This document shows positions 13,104 through 63,832 of a stretch of 64,000 bases of DNA, piece by piece. Origin of the DNA: Candidatus Foliamicus sp. (lineage in GTDB: Bacteria > Pseudomonadota > Gammaproteobacteria > Steroidobacterales > Foliamicaceae). How positions within the stretch are numbered: the stretch's first letter is position 1; every line of letters starts with the position of its first letter. Below the pieces are notes generated by a model. The model made no database searches. It had not been told where the DNA came from and was given only the letters and a program-made list of their open reading frames with translations. The DNA is taken from the NCBI GenBank assembly GCA_965238055.1, contig OZ250178.1, forward strand, positions 2,841,184 to 2,905,183, written 5' to 3'. The translations under genes were made by a program, and so were the position numbers.

Positions 13104-13929
13104 GACAAGATGGCCGGTCCTGGCGGTAGCGCTGGCACTCGGCGTCACGCTGGCGGCGCCGGCCGATGCGCAGCGGCGTCGCGACCGCGACGTGCTGGCC
13201 GAACTGGAGACCCGGGTCGGCGTTCTGGAAGGACAGATTCGTGCCGACAACGTCGTAGCCCTGATCAACGCGCAGGATGAGTTACGGCGCGAGATAAAGG
13301 CGCTGCGCGACGCAGTAGAGCTGCTTGACCAGGACCTGCAACAGAATGCGGAGTTGCGGCGAAGCCAGTTTGCAGCGCTGGAAGAGCGCCTGGCGGCGCT
13401 CGAGGCTGGAGGCTTTTCGATTGTGCCGGTCGGCCCGCAGGCCCCGGAAGCGCAGCCTGGAGGTCCGGCCGGCGCAGCCAACCAGGGCGCCGGCGCGGCG
13501 CCCGGACAGCAGCCGGCGGGAACCGGCGAACCCGGGATTGCCGCAGGCAGCCAGCAAAATTATGAGCAGGCCCGAGACCTCCTTGGCCAGGGACAGTACC
13601 AGGCCGCCGCTGCAGAGTTTGTCCGCTACCTTGAGGCGGATTCTCCGGGGGGCCTGGCGGCCAATGCGCGCTACTGGTTGGGCGAAACCTACTACGTCCA
13701 GGGGCTCTACGCGGAGGCAGGCGCGGAATTCTCCCGGGTGGTCTCGGATTACCCCGACTCCAACAAGCTTCCGGACGCGCTCCTCAAGCTCGGATATACC
13801 CAGGATGAGCTGGGCGATACCGCCGCTGCGATGCAGACGCTGGAACGCGTACGCCAGGACTTCGCCGGCGCCGATTCGGCTAATCTGGCAACCATCCGCC
13901 TGGCCCAGATCGAGGCTCGCTCACGCTAG
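13096..13929 (+). CDS. cpoB: cell division coordinator CpoB (YbgF), TPR protein
   Basis: Signal peptide, coiled-coil N-domain and C-terminal TPR region (ARYWLGETYYVQGLYAEAGAEFSRVVSDYPDSNKLPDALLKLGY). Follows pal with an 8-nt overlap. Confidence 0.9.
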   Translation: MNETRWPVLAVALALGVTLAAPADAQRRRDRDVLAELETRVGVLEGQIRADNVVALINAQDELRREIKALRDAVELLDQDLQQNAELRRSQFAALEERLAALEAGGFSIVPVGPQAPEAQPGGPAGAANQGAGAAPGQQPAGTGEPGIAAGSQQNYEQARDLLGQGQYQAAAAEFVRYLEADSPGGLAANARYWLGETYYVQGLYAEAGAEFSRVVSDYPDSNKLPDALLKLGYTQDELGDTAAAMQTLERVRQDFAGADSANLATIRLAQIEARSR

Positions 13930-13948
13930 CACCGCAGGCGCGACTGCC

Positions 13949-14749
13949 ATGACCACACGTCGCACCCTCATCATGAACGGTCTTGTCCTGGGTTCGTCCG
14001 GCCTCCTCGGCGCCAGACTTTCAGGCGCCGCCGGTTCGGCGCGAGCCCCCGACGAAAACCCGCTCACCATTGCCGTCTTGGGGGCAACCGGGCGCACCGG
14101 TAAGCATGTTGTCGATGATCTCACTGCGCGCGGCCATGCGGTGCGCGGTATTTCCAGGAGCGCTGGCCAGCAGCCCCTGCGAGACGGCGTGGTTTGGATC
14201 AGCGCTGATGTGCGCAAACCGGAAACGCTACGCGCGGCGCTTGAGGACGTGGATGCGCTGGTGTATGCGGTGGGCGTGACCTTCTCCCAAGTCGAAGTCA
14301 GCGCGCTGTACGACGTGTATCACACAGGTGTTGCGGATACGGCGGATCTGGCCAGACAGGCAGGCGTAAGGCGCTTCGTGCTGCTTTCGTCTGCCGGCCG
14401 TTCGCCCGCCAGCGAAATGCCCGAGGAACTCCGTCCCTCGATGGATGCCAAGGCCAAAGGCGAAGCTGCGCTGCGCGCTTCCGGAATCCATTACACCATT
14501 TCGCGCACCCCCGGTTTGTGGAATCGGCCCGGCGGCGAATACGGCATCCTCTTTTTACAAACTGAGCCCATCCCGCCCGGCGGGCCCTACATGATCTGTC
14601 GGCAGGACAGCGCCTCGGTGCTGGCCGAATGCGCTGTTGGCGAAAACGCGATCAACAAGACCTTCACGGTCCTGAACGCCATCACCTACAAGGTTGGGGC
14701 CTGGCGCAACGCTTTGCCGTTTCTGCAAAAGGATCCCCCATCCGGGTAG
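13949..14749 (+). CDS. NAD(P)H-binding (NmrA/atypical SDR-like) protein with twin-arginine signal
   Basis: ATG at 13949 gives MTTRRTLIMNGLVLGSSGLLGARLSGAAGSARA (Tat-like), then the Rossmann motif IAVLGATGRTGKHVV. The listed 474-aa ORF from 13325 overlaps cpoB out of frame, so I rejected its 5' part. Confidence 0.75.
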   Translation: MTTRRTLIMNGLVLGSSGLLGARLSGAAGSARAPDENPLTIAVLGATGRTGKHVVDDLTARGHAVRGISRSAGQQPLRDGVVWISADVRKPETLRAALEDVDALVYAVGVTFSQVEVSALYDVYHTGVADTADLARQAGVRRFVLLSSAGRSPASEMPEELRPSMDAKAKGEAALRASGIHYTISRTPGLWNRPGGEYGILFLQTEPIPPGGPYMICRQDSASVLAECAVGENAINKTFTVLNAITYKVGAWRNALPFLQKDPPSG

Positions 14750-14812
14750 TCGCCAGGGGCTGCCACAGCACGCTCGAGCCGAATCACCTTCGCGGCTACA
14801 ATTGCCGCCCAC

Positions 14813-14885
14813 GGGTCGTTAGCTCAGTTGGCAGAGCATCTGGCTTTTAACCAGTTGGTCGCAGGTTCGATTCCTGCACGACCCA
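14813..14885 (+). tRNA. tRNA-Lys (anticodon UUU)
   Basis: GGGTCGTTAGCTCAGTTGGCAGAGCATCTGGCTTTTAACCAGTTGGTCGCAGGTTCGATTCCTGCACGACCCA. Acceptor GGGTCGT/ACGACCC, T-loop TTCGATT, anticodon loop CTTTTAA. CCA is not encoded. The same position relative to pal-cpoB as lysT in E. coli. Confidence 0.93.
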
Positions 14886-14981
14886 CTTAACTGAAACAGA
14901 AAAGTCTTATAAATCAAACACCACGAAACGGACCGTCAGTCTGTTTTGATTCTCCCCGTAACCTGGCCGGAGATACAAGGA

Positions 14982-15773
14982 ATGAAAGAGCTGTTCGGAT
15001 TTCTCGCGGCAAGCGCCTTGGCAATGGCAAGCGCGTTTGCCGATATCGTTGATCCTCGCTTGTACCTGCCGTCCCCGGGAGACCAGGTGATCGACAGCGG
15101 TGTAGTGAATGTATCCCGCAAGGGTCAACCCATTAGTAGTGAAGAATTCGAGGTTATTCGTCGCGCAGATGGGGGCCGGACGATTGTCAGCGTTGTGACC
15201 GCTGCTGATGGCAGCTTTGATGTTCAGGCGCGCTGGGACTATGACGCCGACGAAGAGGCCATAAGCGCAATAGGTTGGGGAAAGCATGCTGAGCGTGCGT
15301 TTGAAGTGACTTTGGCAAGAGACGCCGATGCAGCCACCATGTCGGTTGCATACGAGTCCGGCGAACGGGTGACGTATAAGGGAGAGTGCCCGCCAGGTTG
15401 TTTGATGGATATGATGCCGGGTGCTATACCGCAATTCACAATGTCGCGACGCTATGACACCGACAGGGCGGGAGTGCAGGATTTTCGCTGGATGGCTTTC
15501 GTGTTGAACCAGGATATGAGGTCATTCGACGTCGTTGTCAGCATTGATCATTTGCGGGATTCCAGGGTTACTCGCGCTGATGGATCAGAGATCGTCGTTC
15601 GTCATTTTGTGTTTGATGAGAAAGGTTCGCTGGACGGTGTCGGCGAGGGATACGAAACGCACTCAAATTTCTGGGTGGATACGATGCACCGCCCGATCAA
15701 ATTCAAGGTTGGCCAAACCATCGGTTTACGCGCGGGCTTTGAAGATATTGACGATAAGCTGGCGCCTCATTGA
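14982..15773 (+). CDS. hypothetical secreted protein
   Basis: ATG at 14982 after AAGGA. Signal peptide MKELFGFLAASALAMASAFA. No recognisable motif. Sits in a visibly more AT-rich stretch after tRNA-Lys. Confidence 0.55.
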   Translation: MKELFGFLAASALAMASAFADIVDPRLYLPSPGDQVIDSGVVNVSRKGQPISSEEFEVIRRADGGRTIVSVVTAADGSFDVQARWDYDADEEAISAIGWGKHAERAFEVTLARDADAATMSVAYESGERVTYKGECPPGCLMDMMPGAIPQFTMSRRYDTDRAGVQDFRWMAFVLNQDMRSFDVVVSIDHLRDSRVTRADGSEIVVRHFVFDEKGSLDGVGEGYETHSNFWVDTMHRPIKFKVGQTIGLRAGFEDIDDKLAPH

Positions 15774-15811
15774 GGATTAGCGCGGGCCAGGAAAACCGCC
15801 GCTTTGAGTCT

Positions 15812-16129
15812 TCACGCCACGGCACTCAGGCCGTTCTTTGCAACCAGCGTCAATAGCTTCAAGGAGGCGCCCCGAGGCCGCTTCTCGCCTCGCTCCCATT
15901 GGCTCACCAAGCCTGTGCTCACGTTGAGGTAGCGCGCGAAGACTGCTTGACTCGCATGCTCGCGGAGCCGTAGCGCACGAATTTCCTCCGCGGTTATTTC
16001 CTCGACCGGCGTGAGGCACATTTCGTCAAAGGTCCGCATGGTCTGTTTCGGCATAACCCCTGCGTCGTGCAACCCTAGCGCCACCTCGTGCGCGGCTGCC
16101 AAGGCCTCGCTTTTGTATCTCTTAGTCAT
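15812..16129 (-). CDS. XRE-family HTH antitoxin (HigA/NadS-like)
   Basis: C-terminal HTH (SQAVFARYLNVSTGLVSQWERGEKRPRGASLKLL). 8-nt overlap with the upstream toxin-like ORF. Confidence 0.8.
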   Translation of the reverse strand: MTKRYKSEALAAAHEVALGLHDAGVMPKQTMRTFDEMCLTPVEEITAEEIRALRLREHASQAVFARYLNVSTGLVSQWERGEKRPRGASLKLLTLVAKNGLSAVA

Positions 16130-16496
16130 CGCATGTCACCTCGACAATTGTTCCATTCGCCAAGGCAGCTTCCAGGCTCGCCCCCGCAAGATTTAGCATT
16201 TCGTCCGCAAGCCTCCGGTATGCCTTAAGTTCGTCTCGGCGGAGGTTTTTCCGGCTACTCTTGGCGAATCCATAGACGAAAAATGCCAGTTTGCCGCGCC
16301 GGAACAGCATGATGGCGCGGATTCCTCCCGATCTGCCACCTCCCTGCCGGGCGATGCGCTGCTTGATGACGCCGCCGCCGAGGTCAGCGTCGATCGCACC
16401 CGCTCGCACGCGTCGGGCCACTTCGCATAAGGCAGCATCCCTCAGTCCCTCGCGATCCGCGATACGGGCGAAAGCCTTCGTCTTGAAAGTCTGCAC
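16122..16496 (-). CDS. RelE/HigB-like type II toxin (toxin-first operon)
   Basis: 124 aa. ...GGVIKQRIARQGGGRSGGIRAIMLFRRGKLAFFVYGFAKSSRKNL... is typical of the RelE-fold toxins that pair with XRE antitoxins. Gene order and overlap fit a higBA-type module. Confidence 0.75.
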   Translation of the reverse strand: MQTFKTKAFARIADREGLRDAALCEVARRVRAGAIDADLGGGVIKQRIARQGGGRSGGIRAIMLFRRGKLAFFVYGFAKSSRKNLRRDELKAYRRLADEMLNLAGASLEAALANGTIVEVTCDD

Positions 16497-16868
16497 AACT
16501 CATCCTGAGTACGCCTTACATCATCCTCTATTGCAACACTAAGTGCGACCTTTTGTCAATCTCTCGTTCAGGACAGACGGGCATTGGGACAGTATTGGGG
16601 TGACACTTAAGGAGTCAACCGGACAACCCGGACACCAGCCCCACGGGCGCGCCAATCGGCATCAGAGGCCCTCCGTGGTATGGGGTTAGACAGCCAAAGA
16701 TCAGGAAAATTCTCAACCCTAATGGACCAGCCTATGGAGGGAAGATCAGATCAACCGACTCATCGAAGACAATTGATCGAAAGGGCTCGCATTTGCACTT
16801 GTGCTTGTTTCCCGATGCACTGGGGGGTTTTGCCTGGTGACCGCTGAGTCTTGGGTGAGTCGCCATGG

Positions 16869-17353
16869 TCACGGGTTCAAGACACGGGCGCCTCGGAGTG
16901 CGATTTCGACGATCTCTTGTTTCATGACTCTTTCCGGGAAGAAATAAGCTATCCGGTTGACGAATGCGAGCCAGAGTTCGTTGCTGGAGAACTTGTCTGC
17001 AGCGCTGATCTCCAGAAACGCATGTGCGTCGGCTCGCCGGATTCCCGTGGCGGTAATTGAAGCTCGCCTTCCCCGTAAGTCTGATCATGCGCCGGGCCCG
17101 CCATCGTTTCGCTCGACATCGAGTACTCCTGGCCTACGCAATGAATGAAGGTGCGGGGAAGGCCTTCCCAGCCTCCGTTTTGAAGTTCTAGCTGATCCGT
17201 CCAACCTCGCATGGGGTGGAGCGCAATCTTCTTTTTCAGCAGCGCCTGAATTTCGGTCTCGGAGTCCGGCGCCAGCATCTTGAGCGGGTAGGAATCGCAG
17301 TAGCTCATCTGGTAGCCGTCGACGAACTTCTTCCACCACGATTTCTTCGCCAA
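16869..17353 (-). pseudogene. frameshifted remnant, possibly the C-terminal half of an alpha/beta hydrolase
   Basis: Two minus-strand frames carry protein-like text: ...GLPRTFIHCVGQEYS..., then after a frame change RRADAHAFLEISAADKFSSNELWLAFVNRIAYFFPERVMKQEIVEIALRGARVLNP*. No intact ORF spans both. Confidence 0.3.
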
Positions 17354-17478
17354 GGCGCTCGCCAGGATCGCGCGAGGCTTTTGAACTGGATCTGGAACGC
17401 TACCCGGTCATTAACCGCCTCTGCTTCCGCGGTAATGTCGAAACCTCAAGCACATGGCCGAAAGGCGACAAGGGGCAT

Positions 17479-18225
17479 CTAGTCCCTTGAGTAGTCGAAT
17501 GCGATGCGGGCACTGGCCCATCGCTCAATCGGCACGTCATTGTGCAACAACGGATTGAATCTCGATTGCCTGAGGGCATTGGCAGCGGGACGCTCGAACA
17601 GAGGACTCAGCGTATTCTCGATGACACAGAGTTTGCGCACACTGCCGCCCGTACTGATGAGGACTTTGAACTCCACATAACCCTTGACGTCGGCATTGGC
17701 ACTAGCCCTCACGCATTGGATACGCGGGTACATTGGTTCTACCAAGAGGATTGGCACAGCTTCTTCAAGTGGTAGATCTTCAGCTTTCGGAATCTCGACT
17801 AGCGGAATCTCGACTAGTATGTCGCCATCCATTGCTGCAGGCTTCTCGGCTGTAGGGCTTCTTCGGTCATTCAATTGAAACACTATCCTGGTTTCGGCCC
17901 AGCGGTTCACAGTCACGCCATCGACCACCCGCGGCTTGAATTTCCAGAGTCGAACAGCCCGTAAGGTATTTACCTCGAAAACACAGCCTGGAGAAGACTC
18001 GGTTATCCTCGCGCGCAAGACAGAGCCATCGGTACCGATGAGCAGCTCAAGCTCTACGTAACCCTCTATGCCATCCCTCAGAGCCTCAGGAGGATACTGG
18101 GGTTCGACGAGGAGGTACGGCGCCGCATCCCCCTCTATATCTGTCAACGGAGTGTCAGGATGAGCCTTGCTGACGATAAACATTAACGCCAGCGCGATAA
18201 ATACCCTGCCGGAGCGCCAAGTCAA
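17479..18225 (-). CDS. secreted protein with two TonB C-terminal-like domains
   Basis: The two halves resemble each other and TonB_C: LLVEPQYPPEALRDGIEGYVELELLIGTDGSVLRARI...LWKFKPRVVDG, and LLVEPMYPRIQCVRASANADVKGYVEFKVLISTGGSV...RFNPLLHND. Signal-like VFIALALMFIVSKA. Start is TTG 18225 or ATG 18183. The rest of the listed 550-aa ORF overlaps the next gene and was rejected. Confidence 0.7.
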   Translation of the reverse strand: MTWRSGRVFIALALMFIVSKAHPDTPLTDIEGDAAPYLLVEPQYPPEALRDGIEGYVELELLIGTDGSVLRARITESSPGCVFEVNTLRAVRLWKFKPRVVDGVTVNRWAETRIVFQLNDRRSPTAEKPAAMDGDILVEIPLVEIPKAEDLPLEEAVPILLVEPMYPRIQCVRASANADVKGYVEFKVLISTGGSVRKLCVIENTLSPLFERPAANALRQSRFNPLLHNDVPIERWASARIAFDYSRD

Positions 18226-53433: not shown

Positions 53434-53746
53434 GCCCGGGTGGCGAAATTAGGTATACGCAGGGGACTTGATATTGAGCGCCGGTTGGGAAACCGCCGGA
53501 TGCACCAGGAGTCAAATTCGGGGAAACCTCAGCACCTAAGGTGGTGGCAATCCCGAGCTAAGCCCCGTTACGGGGAAAGTGTAGAGACTTGACGGCTCCG
53601 GCCTACGTCGCCGCCAGGCGATAGGGCAGAGGGAAAGTCCAGACCCCAAAAGGAGCGCACGGCGCATCCTGCGGCGAAAGTCGTAGAGGGTAAGAAAATC
53701 CCCCGGAGGAAACTCCGTGCCGGTTCGAGTCCGGCCCCGGGCACCG
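53434..53746 (+). tRNA. tRNA-Leu (anticodon UAA) interrupted by a group I intron between U34 and A35
   Basis: 5' exon is 53434-53469 (GCCCGGGTGGCGAAATTAGGTATACGCAGGGGACTT). 3' exon is 53695-53743 (AAAATCCCCCGGAGGAAACTCCGTGCCGGTTCGAGTCCGGCCCCGGGCA), then CC. Joined, they give a class II tRNA: acceptor GCCCGGG/CCCGGGC, anticodon stem GGGGA/TCCCC, loop CTTAAAA, long variable arm CGGAG-GAAA-CTCCG, T-arm GCCGG-TTCGAGT-CCGGC. Confidence 0.85.
53470..53694 (+). ncRNA. group I intron (IC3-like, no ORF), ~225 nt
   Basis: The exon ends in U; CUU can pair with the intron GAG at 53476-53478 to form P1 with a U-G wobble. The intron ends in G (53694). Core blocks GTCAAATTCGGGGAAACCTCAGC (53511-) and GTGTAGAGACTTGACGG (53579-53595) closely resemble the P3/P4 and P7 regions of the Azoarcus tRNA-Ile intron as I remember it. 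Confidence 0.8.
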
Positions 53747-53753
53747 TACTGCG

Positions 53754-53882
53754 GGGCAAGGCAAACTGACGGTCAAAAAGGTCCGGGTGATTAATGAACC
53801 GGGCTTGTACGGCGACGGCAATACCCTGTACTTGAGAGTGGCGTCCGGCGGATCCAAGCAATGGGTCCAGCGGCTCACCATC
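53754..53882 (+). pseudogene. 5' fragment (~43 codons) of a P4-type tyrosine integrase (arm-binding domain), no start codon, truncated
   Basis: GQGKLTVKKVRVINEPGLYGDGNTLYLRVASGGSKQWVQRLTI matches the usual ..KLT...V......G.y.DG.gLyL.V...GSK.W..R pattern. It starts within ~10 nt of the tRNA 3' end, and similarity stops at about 53882. Confidence 0.6.
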
Positions 53883-54450
53883 GCACGCAGCGTATCTCGC
53901 CCAGCCTGCATCCGGTCAGCAGGAGCAACCGCACCGCCGCAACGCAGACCGGGCTTTCCGCTTCGCACAGGGGCAGGATCGCGCCGAGCCTCGCAAGGTC
54001 GACCGCGCCGAGCAGCCGCCCGCGCGGCGGTCGCCGGTAGCGGACGATGCCCCTGCGTGGGTTCCCGGCAGCTTCGGGCTGATGGCCCTACGCGATGGCG
54101 CGGTCGAACATGTTGCGCAGTATGTCATGACTTCGATTCGCGCCGCCCGGCTTTCTGCGTCCATATTCGTGGAAGAAGCGGGCAATATCGGCGCACACGG
54201 CCGATCCGACGCGGAGATGGCCGAGCGCGAACAAATATCCAGCACCGCACGGCATGCGCGTAGCTTTCCCGCGTCGCCAGCTTCGCGTGTTCCGAGCGTC
54301 TGCCTAACAACGGAGCCGTTGCAGCGCCGATGCCGGATCCACGTCTTGCGCCCGTCCGGTCGCGGCCCCAGATTGAGCGCATCTATCCTGGCAACGGTGT
54401 TTTTCACGCTCCCGTAGCCTGCCCGGGCAAACGCCGCTATCATATGACCA
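53878..54450 (-). pseudogene. decayed tyrosine integrase (N-terminal half only): frameshift, in-frame TAG, 3' truncation
   Basis: One frame reads ...RPDGRKTWIRHRRCNGSVVRQTLGTRE... A second frame reads ...LGHLRVGSAVCADIARFFHEYGRRKPGGANRSHDILRNMFDRAIA*GHQPEAAGNPRRGIVRYRRPPRGRLLGAVDLARLGAILPLCEAESPVCVAAVRLLLLTGCRLGEIRCVRW. The TAG at 54088-54090 sits where Trp is expected. The catalytic domain beyond the first Arg is missing. Confidence 0.6.
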
Positions 54451-54459
54451 GTTTCATGA

Positions 54460-54714
<255 letters not shown>

Positions 54715-54732
54715 TACCGGCCGTCATCTCGA

Positions 54733-55182
54733 ATGCGCTATTTCGACACCAGTTTCCTCGTACCCCTCGTCCTCCCCGAGACCACCAGCGAGCCGATCGC
54801 CGCTTTTTTCGAGGGCCTGCCGGGTGAAGAGCTGGCGGTCAGCCATTGGACCCGGGTCGAATTCGCTTCGCTTCTGGCCCGCGAAGTCCGTATGGACAGG
54901 CTGCCCGCCTCGGCGGCGCGCGAGGCGGGCTCAAGGTTCGAAATGATGGTCCGCGAGTCGTTCGTCGTGCTGTTGCCGAATCGCAGCGACTTTGATCGGG
55001 CAAGGGACTGGCTCGGCCAATTCGAGACCGGTTTGAGAGCCGGCGATGCGCTGCACCTCGCTATTGCGGGCAACCGCGGGGCGGATGCCATCTACACGCT
55101 GGACAAGCTTATGATCGTGGCGGGCGAGAGGCTGGACTTGCCGACCAGCGCAGGCATCCGCCTCCCAGGCTACGGCGATTGA
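54733..55182 (+). CDS. vapC: PIN-domain ribonuclease toxin VapC
   Basis: MRYFDTSFLVPL (Asp5), ...AGDALHLAIA..., ...IYTLDKLM. The acidic residues sit in the usual PIN positions. Confidence 0.88.
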   Translation: MRYFDTSFLVPLVLPETTSEPIAAFFEGLPGEELAVSHWTRVEFASLLAREVRMDRLPASAAREAGSRFEMMVRESFVVLLPNRSDFDRARDWLGQFETGLRAGDALHLAIAGNRGADAIYTLDKLMIVAGERLDLPTSAGIRLPGYGD

Positions 55183-55489: not shown

Positions 55490-58222
55490 CTATTGTCGGC
55501 GAGCGGCGGTTGCGAGACGGCGATAAGCTTCGGATTGAACCAGCGTTGGCGCGATCCTTCGGATTTGCTCGAGTGCGTCACCCAAGTAATAGGGGATCGT
55601 CGCATTGTCGGCGCGGGAGATAGTCAAATCAAGAAGGCGAAGCAACGCTCTGGCTTTTGGTTCCTCATTGATCATGGCAAGAGTTGGTCTCTCGCCAGCA
55701 TTATGGAAGTCATAAGAGCGTAGGGACCAACAATCAAACGGCGTAAGGAATCGTTCAATAGTAATTGCCGCCTCAGCGAATTCCTGTCCTGCTGCGACTG
55801 GCAGTTCCGCCAATTTTTCACTAACACTGGAGGAGGCCAGGGAGCGTTCCTGTGGCCATATGGTTTCAAGGAAAGGTCTGGCGACTGATTGAAACAGATC
55901 CTCCTTCGATACGGGGCCCGGAGGCTGATGCTCTGCGTTTACGAAACGAACTATGGCTCCCGCGCAGTACGCCCGTACCTCGTCTTCCAGCAATCGGATC
56001 ATTTGCTGAATTCGCTCTCGCGTCACTTTCGAATTACGCCTTCCCCGTAGCGCATGAAGAGAATCGATCACAACGCTGAACGCAAGCGAGCGGCGGGTTT
56101 TACGACCAAGCCTAGGGTCCGTCGCTCGATAGGCCATATCGTTGCCAATCACTTCTAATACATGAGCAACTCGCGTCCGCCGACCTACGGCGCGCCAAAG
56201 CGCCAGCGCCTCAGAGTCGTCTGCGCGTAGCGGCTCAATAAGATGCTCTTGGGTCCATTCTTCGTCGGACCGCAAAAAGTAATCTAACGCTTCAATCATC
56301 CGATGCTTGGCAATCAATTCTGAGCGCCCGTTAGCATCAATAATTTTTTCGCGCAAAACCGCAAAGTCGTCGGCTCCGTCAAATGGACGAGGCTCCTTGT
56401 TTAGGTTAGGGCAAGCGGCCAAGAAGACGCCGACGAGCTTACCCACAGGCGTGTTCAGCGTATCAAGATCCATAGGATCATCGGAATTGGTTTGCGCAAC
56501 GACATTTAGGTCAGGCTCTTCGTCCGGAGACTGCATGGCATTTGTTGCTTCAACTGCCCTGGGCCAAACGCGGTGCCACACCACCGGCCAATTTCGAGCC
56601 GAGAAAAGTTGTTGCTTCCACGAGTCGAGCCAATTGGAAATTCCTTGGATGGCTTTCGTTATTACGTCATCGGGCAACTCTAGTATGAGAGCAAGCACCC
56701 GACGTGCCTCCGAAGATAAATCGCGCGCTTCATTTTCCTGCGATTTATCTGACGGAGGTGAATGCACCCAACCGAAGCGTTCCCATACCACAGGGTATTG
56801 CGCTCCGCAATCCGCGGTTGATTCGATATCACTCAAAACACTAATGGAATTGCCTTTCTCTGCCAGCCAAGCGTCAGCAGAAAACCCGAAGTTGGATGCC
56901 GCGCGTCGGCTTGCTACGTTCCCGGTGCCAAACGCGCCTTCAAGCACCTGTAGACGGGCGTCGCCTTGCAGATTATCCAGCGAGCGGTCGGGGTGCTCCG
57001 CGACCAACTCCCCGCGTGGGGAATCCAAGTCCAGAAATCCTTCGTCGATTCGATCCATTTCCACCAAGTCAGGAAACTGGCCAATCTTCGAGTCGAGCCA
57101 TTCCTTGGCGCGTTGCGAAAGAGCGGCGCCGGCAATTTCGATCCGCTTTAGTTCCCGAACGACCCAATAGAGGCGGGCCTGTTCAATTTGGTCTGCTCCT
57201 AAATGCCCGCGCCATAAATTTCGGGGCGGCCTCCTGCGTATTCTCCTGATGACCGCCTTTTGCGTCGTGTCGTCAAATTCTGCGAACCGGCGGGCACGCA
57301 GCTCGGCAATCTCCGGATGATGATTGACATCCCAGAACACCCCAAAATCCAATTGAAGAAAAAATTCGCCGACCTCGCCGGCCGGAGTAATCCGAGAATC
57401 ACGCGACATAGCGGCCCACAGTCGCAGGTGCATTGGAGAGTCCGTATGCTTCCAGCGGCGTACAAAGCCCAGTGCTGAAGGTCCATCAATATCAAATAGC
57501 CGCGAAACAACGGCATACAGAAGCTTGACCGATGGCGCAAAGCCTGGGCCACCACCATCGAGCACCCTGTCTTCTTCGCCGCTTTCTGGCTCTGTAACGT
57601 AATGCACGCGACGCAAGTAAAGATGCACCCGCATCCATCCGATGCGCCGCGCAATTCCCAGACCGCGCAAAACCGCAGCGTCTAGCGCATTAGCCAGAGA
57701 AAGTAGAAATTCACCCTCATCCAATTGCGCCAAAGCACTGGCCAGTTGTCGAGAGGTCGAATGGATTTCATCTCCGCTCGTTATCGTGGCGAGCAGGAGA
57801 TCCCGGAATGTTCTTGGAGACTCGCGCAAACCGTAGAATTGCGCATGCCAACTTTGATATTTATCAACCTTCAGTCTCGGCGCAACAAGATCAACAATGG
57901 CCGAAACAAGCGCCCCCGATCGTTCTCCGGAGCGTATCCGATCTTGAACCATTACCGGCTGTATTCCGTAGCGGTCCACCGCTGGCTCATTCCAACTTTC
58001 CTGAATAAGCCTCCATGTGGAACGCCAGGGTTCACGCAGGTTCGTTCCTTCGGGCCGGCTGAGCAGTTCCAGAATTGCATGGCGCTTGATCAGGTCGCCC
58101 GGTAGAAGATGCAATGCCCATTCGACGGTTTCTTTTTTCTCCAGCCGGCCTTCCAGAAACGTGACCGCGGCGCGCATCATCGCTTCATCCCTGTCGTTCA
58201 ACACTGAGCGCAGAAAACTCAC
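55490..58222 (-). CDS. large (~910 aa) uncharacterised protein, translationally coupled to the upstream SIR2-like gene
   Basis: A long uninterrupted ORF in a more AT-rich region. The GTG at 58222 shares 1 nt with the SIR2 TAG stop, and GGAGG lies 7 nt upstream. No Walker A, HExxH, nuclease or other motif found by eye. Leu/Arg/Glu/Ala/Trp-rich, probably helical. Confidence 0.8.
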   Translation of the reverse strand: MSFLRSVLNDRDEAMMRAAVTFLEGRLEKKETVEWALHLLPGDLIKRHAILELLSRPEGTNLREPWRSTWRLIQESWNEPAVDRYGIQPVMVQDRIRSGERSGALVSAIVDLVAPRLKVDKYQSWHAQFYGLRESPRTFRDLLLATITSGDEIHSTSRQLASALAQLDEGEFLLSLANALDAAVLRGLGIARRIGWMRVHLYLRRVHYVTEPESGEEDRVLDGGGPGFAPSVKLLYAVVSRLFDIDGPSALGFVRRWKHTDSPMHLRLWAAMSRDSRITPAGEVGEFFLQLDFGVFWDVNHHPEIAELRARRFAEFDDTTQKAVIRRIRRRPPRNLWRGHLGADQIEQARLYWVVRELKRIEIAGAALSQRAKEWLDSKIGQFPDLVEMDRIDEGFLDLDSPRGELVAEHPDRSLDNLQGDARLQVLEGAFGTGNVASRRAASNFGFSADAWLAEKGNSISVLSDIESTADCGAQYPVVWERFGWVHSPPSDKSQENEARDLSSEARRVLALILELPDDVITKAIQGISNWLDSWKQQLFSARNWPVVWHRVWPRAVEATNAMQSPDEEPDLNVVAQTNSDDPMDLDTLNTPVGKLVGVFLAACPNLNKEPRPFDGADDFAVLREKIIDANGRSELIAKHRMIEALDYFLRSDEEWTQEHLIEPLRADDSEALALWRAVGRRTRVAHVLEVIGNDMAYRATDPRLGRKTRRSLAFSVVIDSLHALRGRRNSKVTRERIQQMIRLLEDEVRAYCAGAIVRFVNAEHQPPGPVSKEDLFQSVARPFLETIWPQERSLASSSVSEKLAELPVAAGQEFAEAAITIERFLTPFDCWSLRSYDFHNAGERPTLAMINEEPKARALLRLLDLTISRADNATIPYYLGDALEQIRRIAPTLVQSEAYRRLATAARRQ

Positions 58223-59496
58223 TACCAACCCTCCCGCTGATCCTCCAACGGCACGCTCACAATGGCATTCAGCCATCCCAGTTCCGCCTTTTGCCTGGAA
58301 ATCACCTTGGACAGGCGAACACGCTCGCTCGGGTCGCTGCGTCGAATTAGATGGTCGAAAAAATCACGCTGCTCATCGCTTGCTTCCGATCTTCTTGTGC
58401 TCACGATTCTCTTTAGTTCACGTTCGACCTGGCTTCTGCTTGCGCCAATTGAAAGAACTCCGGCCCATCGCTCCAATGTGTGCTCAAGCTGCGAATGATC
58501 GCCATTCTGAATTCTGTAAGGAATTGGCGTGATTCCTTGAGCCCTCCAGTCCTCCAACTCCACCGAATCATCATTTGTCATCCCATGGAATATGAAACGC
58601 TCCTTTAGATCCGGAAAATGGGCCCTGTCTGCAGCGACGGCGTTCAGAAGGTATCTCATTGGCGGATCGTTGGCGCTGTACCCCACCAGCACCAGGTTAT
58701 ACAAACGCGCGGCATCGTAAATCAGGTCGGGCACGACCCGCCTGCGCAAATAGAATTCACCAAAGTCCTGATCGGAAATGATCAGGTCCGTCGTTCTCTT
58801 GGGATTCCGGTCCAGCGCGCCGTGAATGTGCAGGACACCGCTGAATTCCGGCCTTAGCGATGGCCTGGGAATGCTTCCCAGAGCATACGTCTGAATAGGC
58901 TGCCTCATGTTTCTCGCAGCATTTTCCAGGAGCAAATCGAAATTCGTCGTGATGATGGTCGACGCTGCGCCACGGTCCGAAAGACGCATCAATGCCCGAT
59001 GAATCGGTGCTGGCTTTGGTTTACCGGAACGCAGCACGTCCTTGTTCTCATCTGTGCCATCGGAGCAGGGGCCACCAGACTTTGGTTTACCGGAACGCAG
59101 CACATCCCCAATCGCTTGTCGGATCGGACTGTCAGCGCTTGATTTTCCTTCCAGCCTTCGCTCAAGCATTCCCAATACAACATCGTACTCCTGCCTCCGA
59201 AAACGCCTGACCTCCGCCTGTTGCGCCGCTAGCAGGCCAGTTAGCTCAAGTTCTTCGGGATTGCAACCTGATTCCTCGTTCGTGGCAATCTCGGAAAACA
59301 CGGCTTTGTCTAATTCTTCATACACCCTTAGGACAAGACATCGAAAGTCGGGCAATCCCGCAGACCTCGAAACGCCGGCGCCAGCTACAAATAGAACCCT
59401 GCCTTGCGCATGTGCAAGAAGCAGCCGCTCAGGAATCGGGATCAATGATGGTCCCAGCAAAATGTTCCTGCCGCCAGTGGTGGGGGGTTGCGTCAT
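58222..59496 (-). CDS. SIR2-like (SIR2_2 family) putative NAD+-consuming protein
   Basis: VLFVAGAGVSRSAGLPDF, TTNFDLLLE, LHIHGAL and LVLVGYSANDP occur in the canonical order. Contains an in-frame internal duplication (DVLRSGKPK x2). Confidence 0.85.
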   Translation of the reverse strand: MTQPPTTGGRNILLGPSLIPIPERLLLAHAQGRVLFVAGAGVSRSAGLPDFRCLVLRVYEELDKAVFSEIATNEESGCNPEELELTGLLAAQQAEVRRFRRQEYDVVLGMLERRLEGKSSADSPIRQAIGDVLRSGKPKSGGPCSDGTDENKDVLRSGKPKPAPIHRALMRLSDRGAASTIITTNFDLLLENAARNMRQPIQTYALGSIPRPSLRPEFSGVLHIHGALDRNPKRTTDLIISDQDFGEFYLRRRVVPDLIYDAARLYNLVLVGYSANDPPMRYLLNAVAADRAHFPDLKERFIFHGMTNDDSVELEDWRAQGITPIPYRIQNGDHSQLEHTLERWAGVLSIGASRSQVERELKRIVSTRRSEASDEQRDFFDHLIRRSDPSERVRLSKVISRQKAELGWLNAIVSVPLEDQREGW

Positions 59497-60709: not shown

Positions 60710-63511
60710 TCATCGCTTTCGGCGTCGTTTGCCCTTTATGTCAGCCGCAAGCGGCGTTCGCATCTTTTCATAGAGTGCGAACAAATGTTCGACGCGCTGG
60801 CGCTCCGACGCGAAACCGGAGCGGCGATAGAGTTGATCAACCGCACGGTCGAGCGCTTGATGCGCCTTACGCAGGTTCGGCGGCATCAGGTCGGGATCGT
60901 AGAGATTGGCGAGGGTGGACGTGAGCCATTCGGCGCGGGCGTCGAGGACGGCCTGCGCGAGAGTCTCTATCTTTGACAAGTCAAGGTCTCGGTTGGTGAA
61001 GTCGGGTGGAGTCGGGAACGTGTTGTAAACGAGGCCGATGGAGTATCGAAAATCGCTCTTTAGCCGTCCACCGACATGGCACAGCCACGTCATGTGCATG
61101 GAAGATGTCAGCAGCGCGAAATCTGCCAGCGTAGCGTTTTCAAGTACGCGCACAAGATTGCTTGGTATCACGGGTGGCTCAAGCCAGCCGATAGGTACGT
61201 ATTCCCGCCGTTCGGAACTGACTTCGGGAATCACCAGGAACGACTCCGTCGGAAGCACGTTCACGTGATAGAGCGTCGGCGTTTCGGCCAGCTTGATCGT
61301 GGGTTTGCTCTTGCTGGCTTGCCTGTAGGCGCGAACGGCTGCGATCCGTTCACGCACAAGCGGCAATTCGGCAAGTGTGTGCGGGGGCGCGTCGTGCAGC
61401 GCGAGAATCCAGCGGTCTCCGCCTTGCAGGTACTCGCGTGCACCCACAAATGGGCGCAGAAGAGGGGCTGCGCCGGGTTCTTTCTCAAGAAAAATCTCTC
61501 TTTCTTCGGCGTTGAATATGTAATGGCCGCCGTCAATAGGCTTGGAACCGATAATCAGTTTCGGCATGCCGTTGATCGGCTGGCTTTCCCCGCGCACGGT
61601 CAGATGCGAGTCGCCCAATCGGCTTGCGTCGAATAGATAGGGCGATAGAACTGTGTGGCGGGTTTCCTCCGGCTCGCCCTGGATGTCGGGATAGCTGAAC
61701 AGGCGTTTCTCGGCATGCACACGGTCGCGTCGGTTGAGGCCCAGAATCGCTACATGAACATGCGCCTTGCCGCGCGCATCCGACCCCCACGCGAAGGTGC
61801 GGTGAGCGAAGGCGATTTCCAGCTTGCAGCGATCGAACAAGATCGGCCAGAGCTGCGCCACCTGCTCGCCCTGGGTAATCGAGTTGGTGGCGACAAAGCC
61901 GATACGGGCGTGGCCTGACTGCACGTACTCGCCTGCCTTGATGAACCAAGCAGTGACGTAGTCGAGCGTGCCCCCGCTCCCGCCCAAGGCAGCGATTCGG
62001 CGCACCTGCGCTCGTTGCTCCGCCGTCTGAAACTTTGCGCCAACGAACGGGGGATTGCCGAACACGAACGAGCACTCTTCGGGCAGAAGGACTTCTCGCC
62101 AATCCATTTCCAGCGCGTCACCGTGCACGATGTGCGGCGAGGTTTCCAACGGAATGCGCGCGTAGGTCTGGCCGAACTCCAGGCTCAGCCGGTTGTTCAT
62201 GATGTGATCCATCATCCACATGGCGGTCTCCGCAATGCGCGCGGGAAATTCGCTGATTTCCATGCCGTTGTACTGATCCACGTCGATCAGCGAAAGCGTG
62301 GCGGCGTCAAGCTCCTCTTGACCAAGCCTGGCGGCCGTGGTGCGGAGTTCGCGGATCACCTCGAGCTCCAAAAGCCGCAGTTCGCGGTAGGCGATGATGA
62401 GAAAGTTGCCGCAGCCGCAGGCGGGGTCGAAGAAGCGCATGCGGCCCAGCTTTTCCTGAAAACGCCGAAGGTCTGCCCTGCGGCGGCTGTCCTTGCGGGA
62501 CTTTAGACGCTCGAATTCCGCCCGCAGATCGTCCATGAACAGCGGTTCGATCACCTTGAGGATGTTCTTTTCGGTGGTGTAGTGCGCCCCCTGGGCGCGG
62601 CGTTGCTCCGGCTTCATGACGGACTGGAACAGCGCCCCGAATATGGCGGGCGAAATGTTCGACCAGTCGAAGCGGCACACCTCCAGCAGTGCTTCGCGCA
62701 TGGAAGCGTTGAAGGATGGAGTGCGCAGGTGCTCGCGAAACAGGTCGCCGTTGACGTACGGGAAACGCGCCAGGTCCTCGTCAAGGAGCGGACTGCGCTC
62801 CTCTTCGGGCGAATTCAGGACCTCGAACAGTTGTCGCAGCCACGGTCCCAGGTCAGCGCCGTCTTCGCTGGTGCGAGTTTCGATGAACTCCAGGAAGATG
62901 TCACGGGGCTCAAAGATGCCGGTGTCGTCGGCGAACAGGCAGAACACGATGCGCACCAGGAAGCGTTCGAGGTCGTGGCCCCGATAGTTGGCGGCATGCA
63001 GCGCGTCGTGCAGTCGTCCAACCAGTTCCGCAGCCTTGATGTTGGCGGGATCCTGATCGCGGAAGGTGCGCTTCTGCACGCCGAGGATGAAGCCGAAATG
63101 CTCTACGTGGGCGGGAAGGTCCTTGAGGCTGAATCGGACCTCTGTGCGCTCGTCCAGATCGTGCAACTCGAAGGTCTGGAAATCGCTGACCAGGATGTAG
63201 CGGGGACGGTCTCGCTCCTTGAGTGCGTCGAAGTATTCTCCGGCCTGACCGTAGGCTTTGCTGAGATCACGCCCGGCGCTCTTCTGTTCGATGATCAGGA
63301 CGCCGGGCCAGAACAGGTCGATGAAGCCGGAACTGTTGTCGAGCTTTGCTACATGCTCCTCATAGCGTGCCACCGAGCGACGCTCCACGCCGAATGCCCG
63401 GAAGAAGGCATTGTAGAAGCTGTGGGTTTCGCTTGTCTCGCGAACCGCGTTGCTCCATTCGTCGGCGAATGTGGCCGCGCGGACCCGGACCTCGTTCCAT
63501 GAAAGGCGCAT
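60710..63511 (-). CDS. MmeI-family type IIL restriction-modification enzyme (fused endonuclease, N6-adenine methyltransferase and target-recognition domain)
   Basis: 933 aa. N-terminal PD-(D/E)xK-like FIDLFWPGVLIIEQKSAGRDL, methyltransferase motif I FFDPACGCGNFLI and motif IV FGNPPFVG, plus a long C-terminal TRD. No separate M or S gene is nearby. Confidence 0.88.
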   Translation of the reverse strand: MRLSWNEVRVRAATFADEWSNAVRETSETHSFYNAFFRAFGVERRSVARYEEHVAKLDNSSGFIDLFWPGVLIIEQKSAGRDLSKAYGQAGEYFDALKERDRPRYILVSDFQTFELHDLDERTEVRFSLKDLPAHVEHFGFILGVQKRTFRDQDPANIKAAELVGRLHDALHAANYRGHDLERFLVRIVFCLFADDTGIFEPRDIFLEFIETRTSEDGADLGPWLRQLFEVLNSPEEERSPLLDEDLARFPYVNGDLFREHLRTPSFNASMREALLEVCRFDWSNISPAIFGALFQSVMKPEQRRAQGAHYTTEKNILKVIEPLFMDDLRAEFERLKSRKDSRRRADLRRFQEKLGRMRFFDPACGCGNFLIIAYRELRLLELEVIRELRTTAARLGQEELDAATLSLIDVDQYNGMEISEFPARIAETAMWMMDHIMNNRLSLEFGQTYARIPLETSPHIVHGDALEMDWREVLLPEECSFVFGNPPFVGAKFQTAEQRAQVRRIAALGGSGGTLDYVTAWFIKAGEYVQSGHARIGFVATNSITQGEQVAQLWPILFDRCKLEIAFAHRTFAWGSDARGKAHVHVAILGLNRRDRVHAEKRLFSYPDIQGEPEETRHTVLSPYLFDASRLGDSHLTVRGESQPINGMPKLIIGSKPIDGGHYIFNAEEREIFLEKEPGAAPLLRPFVGAREYLQGGDRWILALHDAPPHTLAELPLVRERIAAVRAYRQASKSKPTIKLAETPTLYHVNVLPTESFLVIPEVSSERREYVPIGWLEPPVIPSNLVRVLENATLADFALLTSSMHMTWLCHVGGRLKSDFRYSIGLVYNTFPTPPDFTNRDLDLSKIETLAQAVLDARAEWLTSTLANLYDPDLMPPNLRKAHQALDRAVDQLYRRSGFASERQRVEHLFALYEKMRTPLAADIKGKRRRKR

Positions 63512-63580: not shown

Positions 63581-63832
63581 TCATCCGAAAAGCGTTTCAC
63601 GGACCTCGCTCTTTGGCCGATCCAGGAAATCCGCGACGTCGGACACGATTCCATCCGGGGTATCAATGTGCAAATCCCGGTGCCTTGGCACTGTCACGCT
63701 GTGCCGCTTCGCGTCCGCGTTCGTGCGCGTGACAGGCATGTGACTTCCCTTCGTTCGGGTCACACGATACCCGTAGTGCCGAGCGAGCAGCCTTGCGACC
63801 TTCTCACCGGAGAGGTCGCGCGGAACCTTCAT
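63581..63832 (-). CDS. hicA: HicA-family mRNA interferase toxin
   Basis: 83 aa. ...LSGEKVARLLARHYGYRVTRTKGSHM... is the HicA dsRBD-like signature. ATGA overlap with the upstream HicB-like ORF. Confidence 0.85.
   Translation of the reverse strand: MKVPRDLSGEKVARLLARHYGYRVTRTKGSHMPVTRTNADAKRHSVTVPRHRDLHIDTPDGIVSDVADFLDRPKSEVRETLFG

Follow-up and report, generated by a model that had tools for sequence, protein, structure and literature searches.

A translationally coupled SIR2 and solenoid gene pair in a Candidatus Foliamicus island, a likely two-polypeptide member of the DSR1 lineage

Why would an effector and its putative sensor be kept as two overlapping genes, although a change of a single base at their junction would fuse them? 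This question is raised by a gene pair in a 64,000-nucleotide stretch of Candidatus Foliamicus sp. (contig OZ250178.1, positions 2,841,184 to 2,905,183; hereafter the window, whose own positions serve as coordinates throughout), in which a 424-aa SIR2-type protein and a 910-aa protein are encoded one after the other on the minus strand. A preliminary description of this DNA had proposed either a split DSR-like design or a new system, and had judged that the locus fits none of the known SIR2 systems. Our analysis upholds the split DSR-like alternative, specifically DSR1, whereas the proposal of a new system falls and the judgement of no fit proves wrong, as the homology of the pair to DSR1 extends from end to end. 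We consider it likely that the pair is a two-polypeptide (“split”) member of the DSR1 lineage, in which binding of a phage protein by the sensor activates the SIR2 NADase. The novelty of the pair appears to be architectural, and not that of a new NADase system. DSR1, or defence-associated sirtuin 1, was reportedly described by Gao et al. in 2020 and by Garb et al. in 2022.

The assignment is carried by three hidden Markov models (HMMs) for Dsr1, on each of which the two proteins match complementary positions. On the PADLOC model PDLC02183 (1275 positions), the SIR2 protein matches positions 56–322 (4.7e-44) and the large protein positions 899–1273 (1.1e-24); on the NCBIfam model NF041818 (1263 positions, equivalog cutoff 1400 bits), the corresponding matches are 56–324 (2.9e-55) and 894–1262 (9.6e-34), and the large protein also matches the C-terminus of a second PADLOC Dsr1 model (4e-20). 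Profile–profile alignment with hhalign extends these matches. Against a canonical Dsr1 profile of five annotated plasmid proteins (from E. coli, Pantoea, Shewanella, Ralstonia and Agrobacterium), the SIR2 family alignment (A3) covers columns 3–397 with 100% probability (E 3e-43), and the large-protein family alignment (A1) covers columns 388–1275 with 99.35% probability (E 6.6e-21, 842 aligned columns). These complementary spans indicate that the two proteins together make up a whole DSR1, its order preserved, with the cut near residue 390. BLASTP aligns the SIR2 protein to residues 10–296 of E. coli Dsr1 at 30% identity (E 9e-43), and a concatenation of SIR2 protein and sensor aligns without a gap at the junction to two natural fusions, P0037 (60% identity) and P0099 (55% identity).

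As anticipated in the preliminary description, the effector has the signature motifs of its family in order, with NAD-binding and catalytic residues intact. The 424-aa protein matches Pfam SIR2_2 (8e-20), and its motifs, G39AGVS43, T183TNFD187, H223IHG226 and V271GYSANDP278, are invariant in 115 family members; H225 and G226 are also present in E. coli Dsr1. Of its 1444 homologues, the best 120 are without exception stand-alone proteins of about 372–438 aa. A Foldseek search with its AlphaFold2 (AF2) model, which is of low confidence, returned KomC, DSR2, HAM-SIR2, SIR2-HerA and FAM118B as weak neighbours; these model-based matches may be taken as only weakly supportive. The public gene call for the protein, P0121, is 377 aa long and begins at Leu48, which cuts off the GAGVS NAD-binding loop (window 59356–59496). 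As the homologues align from residue 1 of the 424-aa open reading frame (ORF), this deposited start is very likely wrong. Residues 135–156 (~59029–59094, minus strand) form a 22-aa loop insertion that arose by internal duplication (DVLRSGKPK...DVLRSGKPK); it is common only with a metagenomic homologue, P0122 (85% identical), and is found neither in the copy of a Ca. Foliamicus relative nor in any other family member.

The partner was described beforehand as helical or repeat-like, without a P-loop or nuclease motif, and this agrees with what we find. It has no Pfam match at E<=0.01, and its AF2 model is all-alpha with about 55 helices, at a predicted local distance difference test (pLDDT) score of 80.7. 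Foldseek matches this model only to generic HEAT/ARM solenoids (karyopherins, condensin, CAND1) at template-modelling (TM) scores of at most 0.34, matches to a predicted structure that appear uninformative on function, and PDB searches with the sequence and with the A1 profile found no relative among solved structures. Sensor homologues at E<1e-5 number 536. The best 120 of these span 48–100% identity; 118 are stand-alone proteins (761–930 aa, mostly ~890–930), and two are fusions of ~1300 aa with SIR2_2.

At the junction, direct reading of the sequence confirms the proposed overlap. The coding strand reads GGGAGGGTTGGTAGTGAGT, where the SIR2 stop codon TAG (58224–58222) and the sensor start codon GTG (58222–58220) have one base in common, and GGAGG (58234–58230) lies 7 nt 5' of that GTG. 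The large ORF runs in a frame different from that of the SIR2 ORF and would count 928 aa from its first ATG (55490..58276, minus strand); started at the GTG it has 910 aa, which is also the start of the public gene call for the same genome (sensor P0001, 100% identity). A scan for promoters and terminators gave a result no better than chance.

How stable is this two-gene state? A scan of GTDB genomes yielded 62 loci, and purpose-built HMMs place the SIR2 ORF directly upstream of the sensor, as a separate ORF, in practically all of the ~50 full-length loci; the synteny of the two genes, put forward earlier as a matter for a genome survey, is thus conserved in about 50 loci. These split loci are spread over more than 10 phyla and one archaeon, and include Latescibacterota, Nitrospirota, Rhizobiales, Planctomycetota, Desulfobacterota, Chlorobiaceae, Actinomycetota and, as the archaeon, a member of the Methanosarcinales. 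The break point with its start codon and Shine–Dalgarno (SD)-like motif is kept at identities of 29–86%, the most divergent copies (29–31%) being those of Devosia and Agrobacterium. Among 53 junctions, 28 overlap by 4 nt (ATGA) and 18 by 1 nt (TGATG or TAGTG), the others lying between -11 and +2 nt; with the same geometry in 46 of the 53 homologous junctions, the coupled operon junction is more than chance. An SD-like motif at -16..-4 is found in 26 of 51 junctions, against a background of 10.6% within the SIR2 coding sequence, although the binomial p-values for this difference ignore the kinship of the sequences and are overstated. By sequence comparison, then, both the division into two genes and the signals that couple them are conserved.

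The two genes have also diverged together. In 45 intact pairs, the identities of SIR2 protein and sensor are correlated (Mantel r 0.90), a value reached by none of 2000 permutations. In 99% of comparisons it is the SIR2 protein that is better conserved, with a mean identity of 61.5% against 48.8% for the sensor, and a SIR2 protein that diverges more slowly than its sensor is the pattern expected of an effector with a sensor. Measured against the copy in the Ca. Foliamicus relative, the ratio of nonsynonymous to synonymous substitution rates (dN/dS) is 0.217 for the SIR2 gene and 0.218 for the sensor gene, values that indicate purifying selection on both.

Fused forms do occur. An exhaustive search of representatives (clusters at 50% identity) with the sensor found 1544 proteins at E<=1e-3, 791 at <=1e-10 and 390 at <=1e-30. 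The best 150 sensor representatives comprise 10 fused proteins (1294–1345 aa) and 98 full-length stand-alone ones (860–945 aa), so that natural fusions make up ~10% and split forms ~90% of the full-length representatives. In a neighbour-joining (NJ) tree of the 50%-identity representatives, which is star-like and without support values, the fused forms stand at 12 scattered tips, and two of them branch beside the fused outgroups, E. coli Dsr1 and a Rhizobium protein of 1190 aa. This distribution is suggestive of an ancestral fission followed by repeated re-fusions, which would be easy at an overlapping junction.

Some copies depart from the intact pair. In a Sedimentisphaerales metagenome-assembled genome (MAG; locus L038, 9100–12721), an intact 915-aa sensor gene stands without an upstream SIR2 gene, an orphan sensor that could be due to rearrangement or to a chimeric assembly. 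At L044 (7558–9983) and L050 (7465–9980), the SIR2 gene is broken by an insertion of ~1.2 kb, probably an insertion sequence (IS) element, and at L018, L047, L052 and L061 the sensor is frameshifted. Decay of the system is therefore common.

Features of the pair and of its surroundings in the window (coordinates are window positions)
Feature	Position	Strand	Remarks
SIR2 effector gene	58222..59496	-	424-aa stand-alone SIR2_2 NADase-type sirtuin, corresponding to about DSR1 residues 3–397
GAGVS NAD-binding loop, residues 39–43	59368..59382	-	G39, A40 and S43 invariant in 115 members, identical in E. coli Dsr1
TTNFD, residues 183–187	58936..58950	-	N185 is the SIR2 catalytic Asn; T183, T184, N185 and F186 invariant, common with E. 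coli Dsr1
HIHG, residues 223–226	58819..58830	-	H225 is the SIR2 catalytic His; H223, H225 and G226 invariant
VGYSANDP, residues 271–278	58663..58686	-	G272, Y273, A275 and D277 invariant (115 members)
Translational-coupling junction	58220..58235	-	GGGAGGG 58235–58229, 7-nt spacer after GGAGG, TAG/GTG overlap
Sensor gene	55490..58222	-	910-aa all-alpha solenoid, corresponding to about DSR1 residues 388–1275 (middle and C-terminal sensor region)
tRNA-Leu(UAA) split by a group I intron	53434–53743	+	exon 1 53434–53469, intron 53470–53694, exon 2 53695–53743
ORF after tRNA-Leu	53787–54263	+	begins MINEPGLYGDGNTLYLRVASGGSKQWVQRL, resembling the N-terminus of a P4-type (DUF4102) integrase
Phd/YefM-PIN (VapBC-like) module	54475–55182	+	on the sensor side
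TIR gene, 270 aa	59568–60380	-	C-terminal CAP12/Pycsar-type TIR 3e-41; PADLOC PDC-S35 5.7e-95, full length
MmeI-family type IIG restriction-modification enzyme, complete	60710–63511	-	all five MmeI domains; on the SIR2 side
HicA toxin	63581–63832	-	on the SIR2 side

How might such a pair work? In a model that takes DSR1 as its guide, the first gene would supply an SIR2_2 NADase whose NAD-binding loop and catalytic Asn and His are intact, and the second, translationally coupled gene a ~900-aa alpha-solenoid of the kind that in canonical DSR1 is fused C-terminally to the SIR2 domain. The two proteins would form a stoichiometric, non-covalent complex, with the stoichiometry set by translational coupling and with the covalent linker replaced by the last ~100 aa of the SIR2 protein, which are helical, together with the N-terminal end of the sensor. 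By analogy, the solenoid would then bind a phage structural protein made during infection and thereby turn on the SIR2 NADase; NAD+ would be cleaved and the phage starved, whether or not the host dies. In E. coli Dsr1, the sensor is triggered by the major capsid protein of the phage; it is a bilobed TPR sensor, which Avs7 has as well (PMC12803255). For DSR1, both NAD+ depletion and phage protection have been reported, while in Bacillus expressing DSR1 the depletion was only transient and the culture did not collapse (bioRxiv 10.1101/2021.12.14.472415). The earlier proposal of two-component abortive infection by NAD+ depletion therefore holds for the two components, as a split DSR1 pair, and overstates the abortive outcome.

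The surroundings of related pairs place them in a mobile, defence-rich context. In one relative the pair stands alongside GmrSD, a DUF1156 methylase, ApeA and DUF499, and in another alongside an integrase, transposases and Vsr/Dcm. On the symbiosis plasmid p1S06B of Bradyrhizobium (L069) the pair lies among IS elements, and on the Ti plasmid pTi_CFBP2407 of Agrobacterium (L071) it adjoins a 957-aa N6-DNA methylase; the further plasmid matches, H2–H6, likewise come from Ti plasmids of Agrobacterium and from symbiosis plasmids or megaplasmids of rhizobia. Several families recur among the ORFs nearest to the pair (95 ORFs from 53 loci): HmaB/DUF1156, MADS, Zorya, type I restriction-modification (R-M) genes, DRT, Schlafen-like genes, integrases and transposases.

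The pair in the window lies in a stretch of lower guanine+cytosine content (0.54–0.57 against ~0.60–0.66 around it), and the surroundings named in the preliminary description, an island at a tRNA beside an R-M enzyme, a TIR-like gene and two toxin–antitoxin (TA) modules, were all found, the tRNA-Leu being split by an intron. The 225-nt intron lies between U34 and A35 of tRNA-Leu(UAA) and matches the full Rfam Intron_gpI model (33.2 bits, E 1e-6); the acceptor stem, anticodon stem, variable arm and T arm of the tRNA can be read by eye. This is the classic cyanobacterial and plastid position of a group I intron. ARAGORN, and Rfam at its gathering thresholds, found no RNA gene at the island border, and the tRNA-Leu with its intron was detected only in the E-value mode of Rfam. 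The same intron-containing tRNA-Leu, mostly identical in sequence, lies at the equivalent place in the Ca. Foliamicus relative (L006), and it marks the attachment site of the island. The ORF directly after it is probably a degraded integrase, as the remainder of its frame beyond the N-terminus is not integrase-like; tRNA and integrase remnant lie ~1.2–2 kb downstream of the pair, on the sensor side. Past the end of the window follow a small ORF (possibly HicB), an HTH_3 protein, and rve_3 and Mu-type transposases.

In the Ca. Foliamicus MAG OZ253475.1 (L006), the split pair is directly followed by a canonical Dsr1 (13867–17698, plus strand), at the position that the Phd/PIN module holds in the window. 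Its NCBIfam scores of 1166 and 465 bits together exceed the cutoff of 1400, and a frameshift or an assembly indel near model position 835 divides it into two ORFs. As this gene stands directly beside the split pair, split and canonical DSR1 coexist in one island.

Several observations weigh against reading the pair as a split DSR1. The identity of the sensor to Dsr1 is only ~17% in the hhalign alignment, and on NF041818 the SIR2 protein and the sensor score 187.6 and 116.3 bits against the cutoff of 1400, with even the fused clade member P0037 reaching only 317.7 bits; as the clade is so distant from canonical Dsr1, its trigger and outcome may differ. The AF2 model of the SIR2 protein is poor (pLDDT 59.6), and the structural matches of the sensor are generic solenoids only, without a DSR or Avs structure to compare. 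Many of the nearest neighbours are housekeeping genes, and the neighbour counts carry no background comparison, so that no enrichment is claimed from them. Finally, the physical association of SIR2 protein and sensor is one that we infer, and the functional case for the split clade is argued from homology to DSR1.

What else could the pair be? The ORFs overlap in different frames, fused relatives of ~1300 aa exist, and broken copies are present at the six disrupted loci described above (L018, L044, L047, L050, L052 and L061), so that one might think of a single-chain DSR1 gene broken by a frameshift, a nonsense mutation or a sequencing error, and hence of a pseudogene or an artefact. The truly broken copies, however, break at other, scattered positions, whereas the same break point, with its start and SD-like motif, is kept across the divergent loci; dN/dS is 0.22 on either side of the break, and an independent assembly yields identical gene products. 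We therefore give a broken gene next to no credence, and a frameshift artefact or pseudogene is excluded by junction conservation, co-divergence and dN/dS. That the pair is a NADase defence system of a new kind, with no relation to the DSR families, is just as implausible. Such a system would explain why the large protein has no Pfam domain and no relative among solved structures, and why RefSeq names it “hypothetical protein”, but full-length, same-order Dsr1 homology in three independent HMMs and in profile–profile alignment contradicts it, and the PADLOC, NCBIfam and hhalign matches to Dsr1 refute it. For a three-gene, Thoeris-like system, in which a signal made by the TIR protein activates SIR2, speak the combination of TIR and SIR2 proteins in Thoeris itself, the position of the TIR gene 71 nt upstream of the pair on the shared strand, and the recurrence of all three genes in the closest relative, L006. 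Yet the TIR protein matches the single-gene PADLOC candidate PDC-S35 and a Pfam CAP12/Pycsar TIR domain and has no ThsB match, and Pfam finds neither SLOG nor any other nucleotide-sensing domain in the SIR2 protein. Nor does the TIR gene travel with the pair: PDC-S35 occurs once, in L006, among the 95 nearest neighbours of 53 loci, and L001, L003, L069 and L071 have no TIR gene. A three-gene system is thus very unlikely; because it adjoins the pair only in the window and in L006, the TIR gene is a separate system, as are the MmeI-type R-M enzyme and the TA modules.

A role outside defence, for instance as a protein deacylase or ADP-ribosyltransferase with a regulatory scaffold, would suit the loci among housekeeping genes, and the SIR2 fold allows several chemistries. 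Against it stand the demonstrated anti-phage NADase activity in the SIR2_2/DSR1 lineage, a patchy taxonomic spread that resembles horizontal transfer, carriage on plasmids, and the association with integrases, transposases and R-M genes; we regard such a role as highly unlikely. A different kind of alternative concerns not what the pair is but how it is controlled. The free-standing sensor could be an antitoxin-like inhibitor or chaperone of SIR2 in trans, from which a phage protein frees SIR2 to form an active oligomer or filament. The split is kept across deep divergence and in ~90% of full-length representatives, though one base would suffice to fuse the genes; tight translational coupling suggests controlled stoichiometry, and the weak neighbours of the SIR2 model include the filament-forming defence sirtuins KomC, HAM-SIR2 and FAM118B. 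Fusions recur in the clade, however, at the scattered tips of the NJ tree, so that covalent linkage is tolerated, which argues against obligatory release; one sensor is an orphan without SIR2 (L038), and the Foldseek matches come from a low-confidence model. On balance we doubt that the sensor acts in this way, while giving the idea some room. It is similarly doubtful, though conceivable, that the split design provides a regulation distinct from that of single-chain DSR1, with the sensor holding SIR2 inactive in a hetero-complex until a phage protein frees or re-arranges the SIR2 subunits to oligomerise into the active NADase, and with sensors made exchangeable by their separate gene. In that event the split clade would stand apart in mechanism as a system of its own and would be more than a trivial gene fission.

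The preferred reading, a split member of the DSR1 lineage, bears on how such systems are found and studied. RefSeq labels the pair “SIR2 family protein” and “hypothetical protein”, and single-gene DSR1 models probably miss it; with both halves far under the curated Dsr1 threshold, the extent of DSR1-type immunity may be underestimated. Split pairs are widespread, with 390 sensor clusters at 50% identity (E<=1e-30), in many phyla, in an archaeon, and on Ti and symbiosis plasmids. Our comparisons matched no described system with the same two-gene architecture, the described DSR1 model being a single gene, and a literature search, supplementary tables aside, found no paper on a split DSR1; the only trace is a remark in the methods of PMC12803255, which mention “split proteins” whose adjacent genes were analysed. 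Together, the natural split and the natural fusions form a Rosetta-stone pair that marks the boundary of effector and sensor in DSR1 at about residue 390, and the split offers effector and sensor as proteins that can be handled apart in biochemical work on this family, which has no solved structure.

How does the pair compare with known systems? The 910-aa protein carries the Dsr1-type TPR sensor by transitivity only, with Dsr1 as its link to Avs7; unlike Avs7, the pair has no STAND NTPase, and its effector is a separate protein. The Dsr1-type sensor is homologous to that of Avs7 and is found with many different effectors (PMC12803255). With DSR2 the pair has the general logic in common, a SIR2 NADase under a large alpha-solenoid that binds a phage structural protein, and Foldseek lists DSR2 as one of the weak neighbours of the SIR2 model. 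DSR2 itself is a single chain of SIR2, MID and an alpha-solenoid C-terminal domain that senses the phage tail tube; the PADLOC Dsr2 models match neither protein at E<=0.01, and no DSR2 chain is among the Foldseek matches of the sensor model. SIR2-HerA (Nezha), SPARSA and Thoeris resemble the pair in that a SIR2 effector and a sensor or regulator partner come from separate operon genes, and SPARSA (SIR2-APAZ with a prokaryotic Argonaute, pAgo) also has fused and split forms. In contrast to SIR2-HerA, the partner here is all-alpha in its AF2 model and has no ATPase domain in Pfam or PADLOC; the Aga_SIR2 models of SPARSA match the SIR2 core weakly (~5e-7), with no pAgo match in the large protein, and the ThsA models of Thoeris match the SIR2 core only (2.3e-8), the SIR2 protein having no SLOG domain. 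The closest comparison is with DSR1. DSR1 is a single chain of ~1260 aa, whereas here two translationally coupled genes divide it at about Dsr1 residue 390, and the clade, ~30% identical in SIR2 and ~17% in the sensor, scores far under the equivalog cutoff. Common to both are an N-terminal SIR2_2 domain with the NAD-binding loop and catalytic Asn and His (GAGxS, TTNF and HxHG), a helical middle and sensor region of ~870 aa in the same order, which together cover the whole length of Dsr1, and a mobile, defence-island lifestyle.

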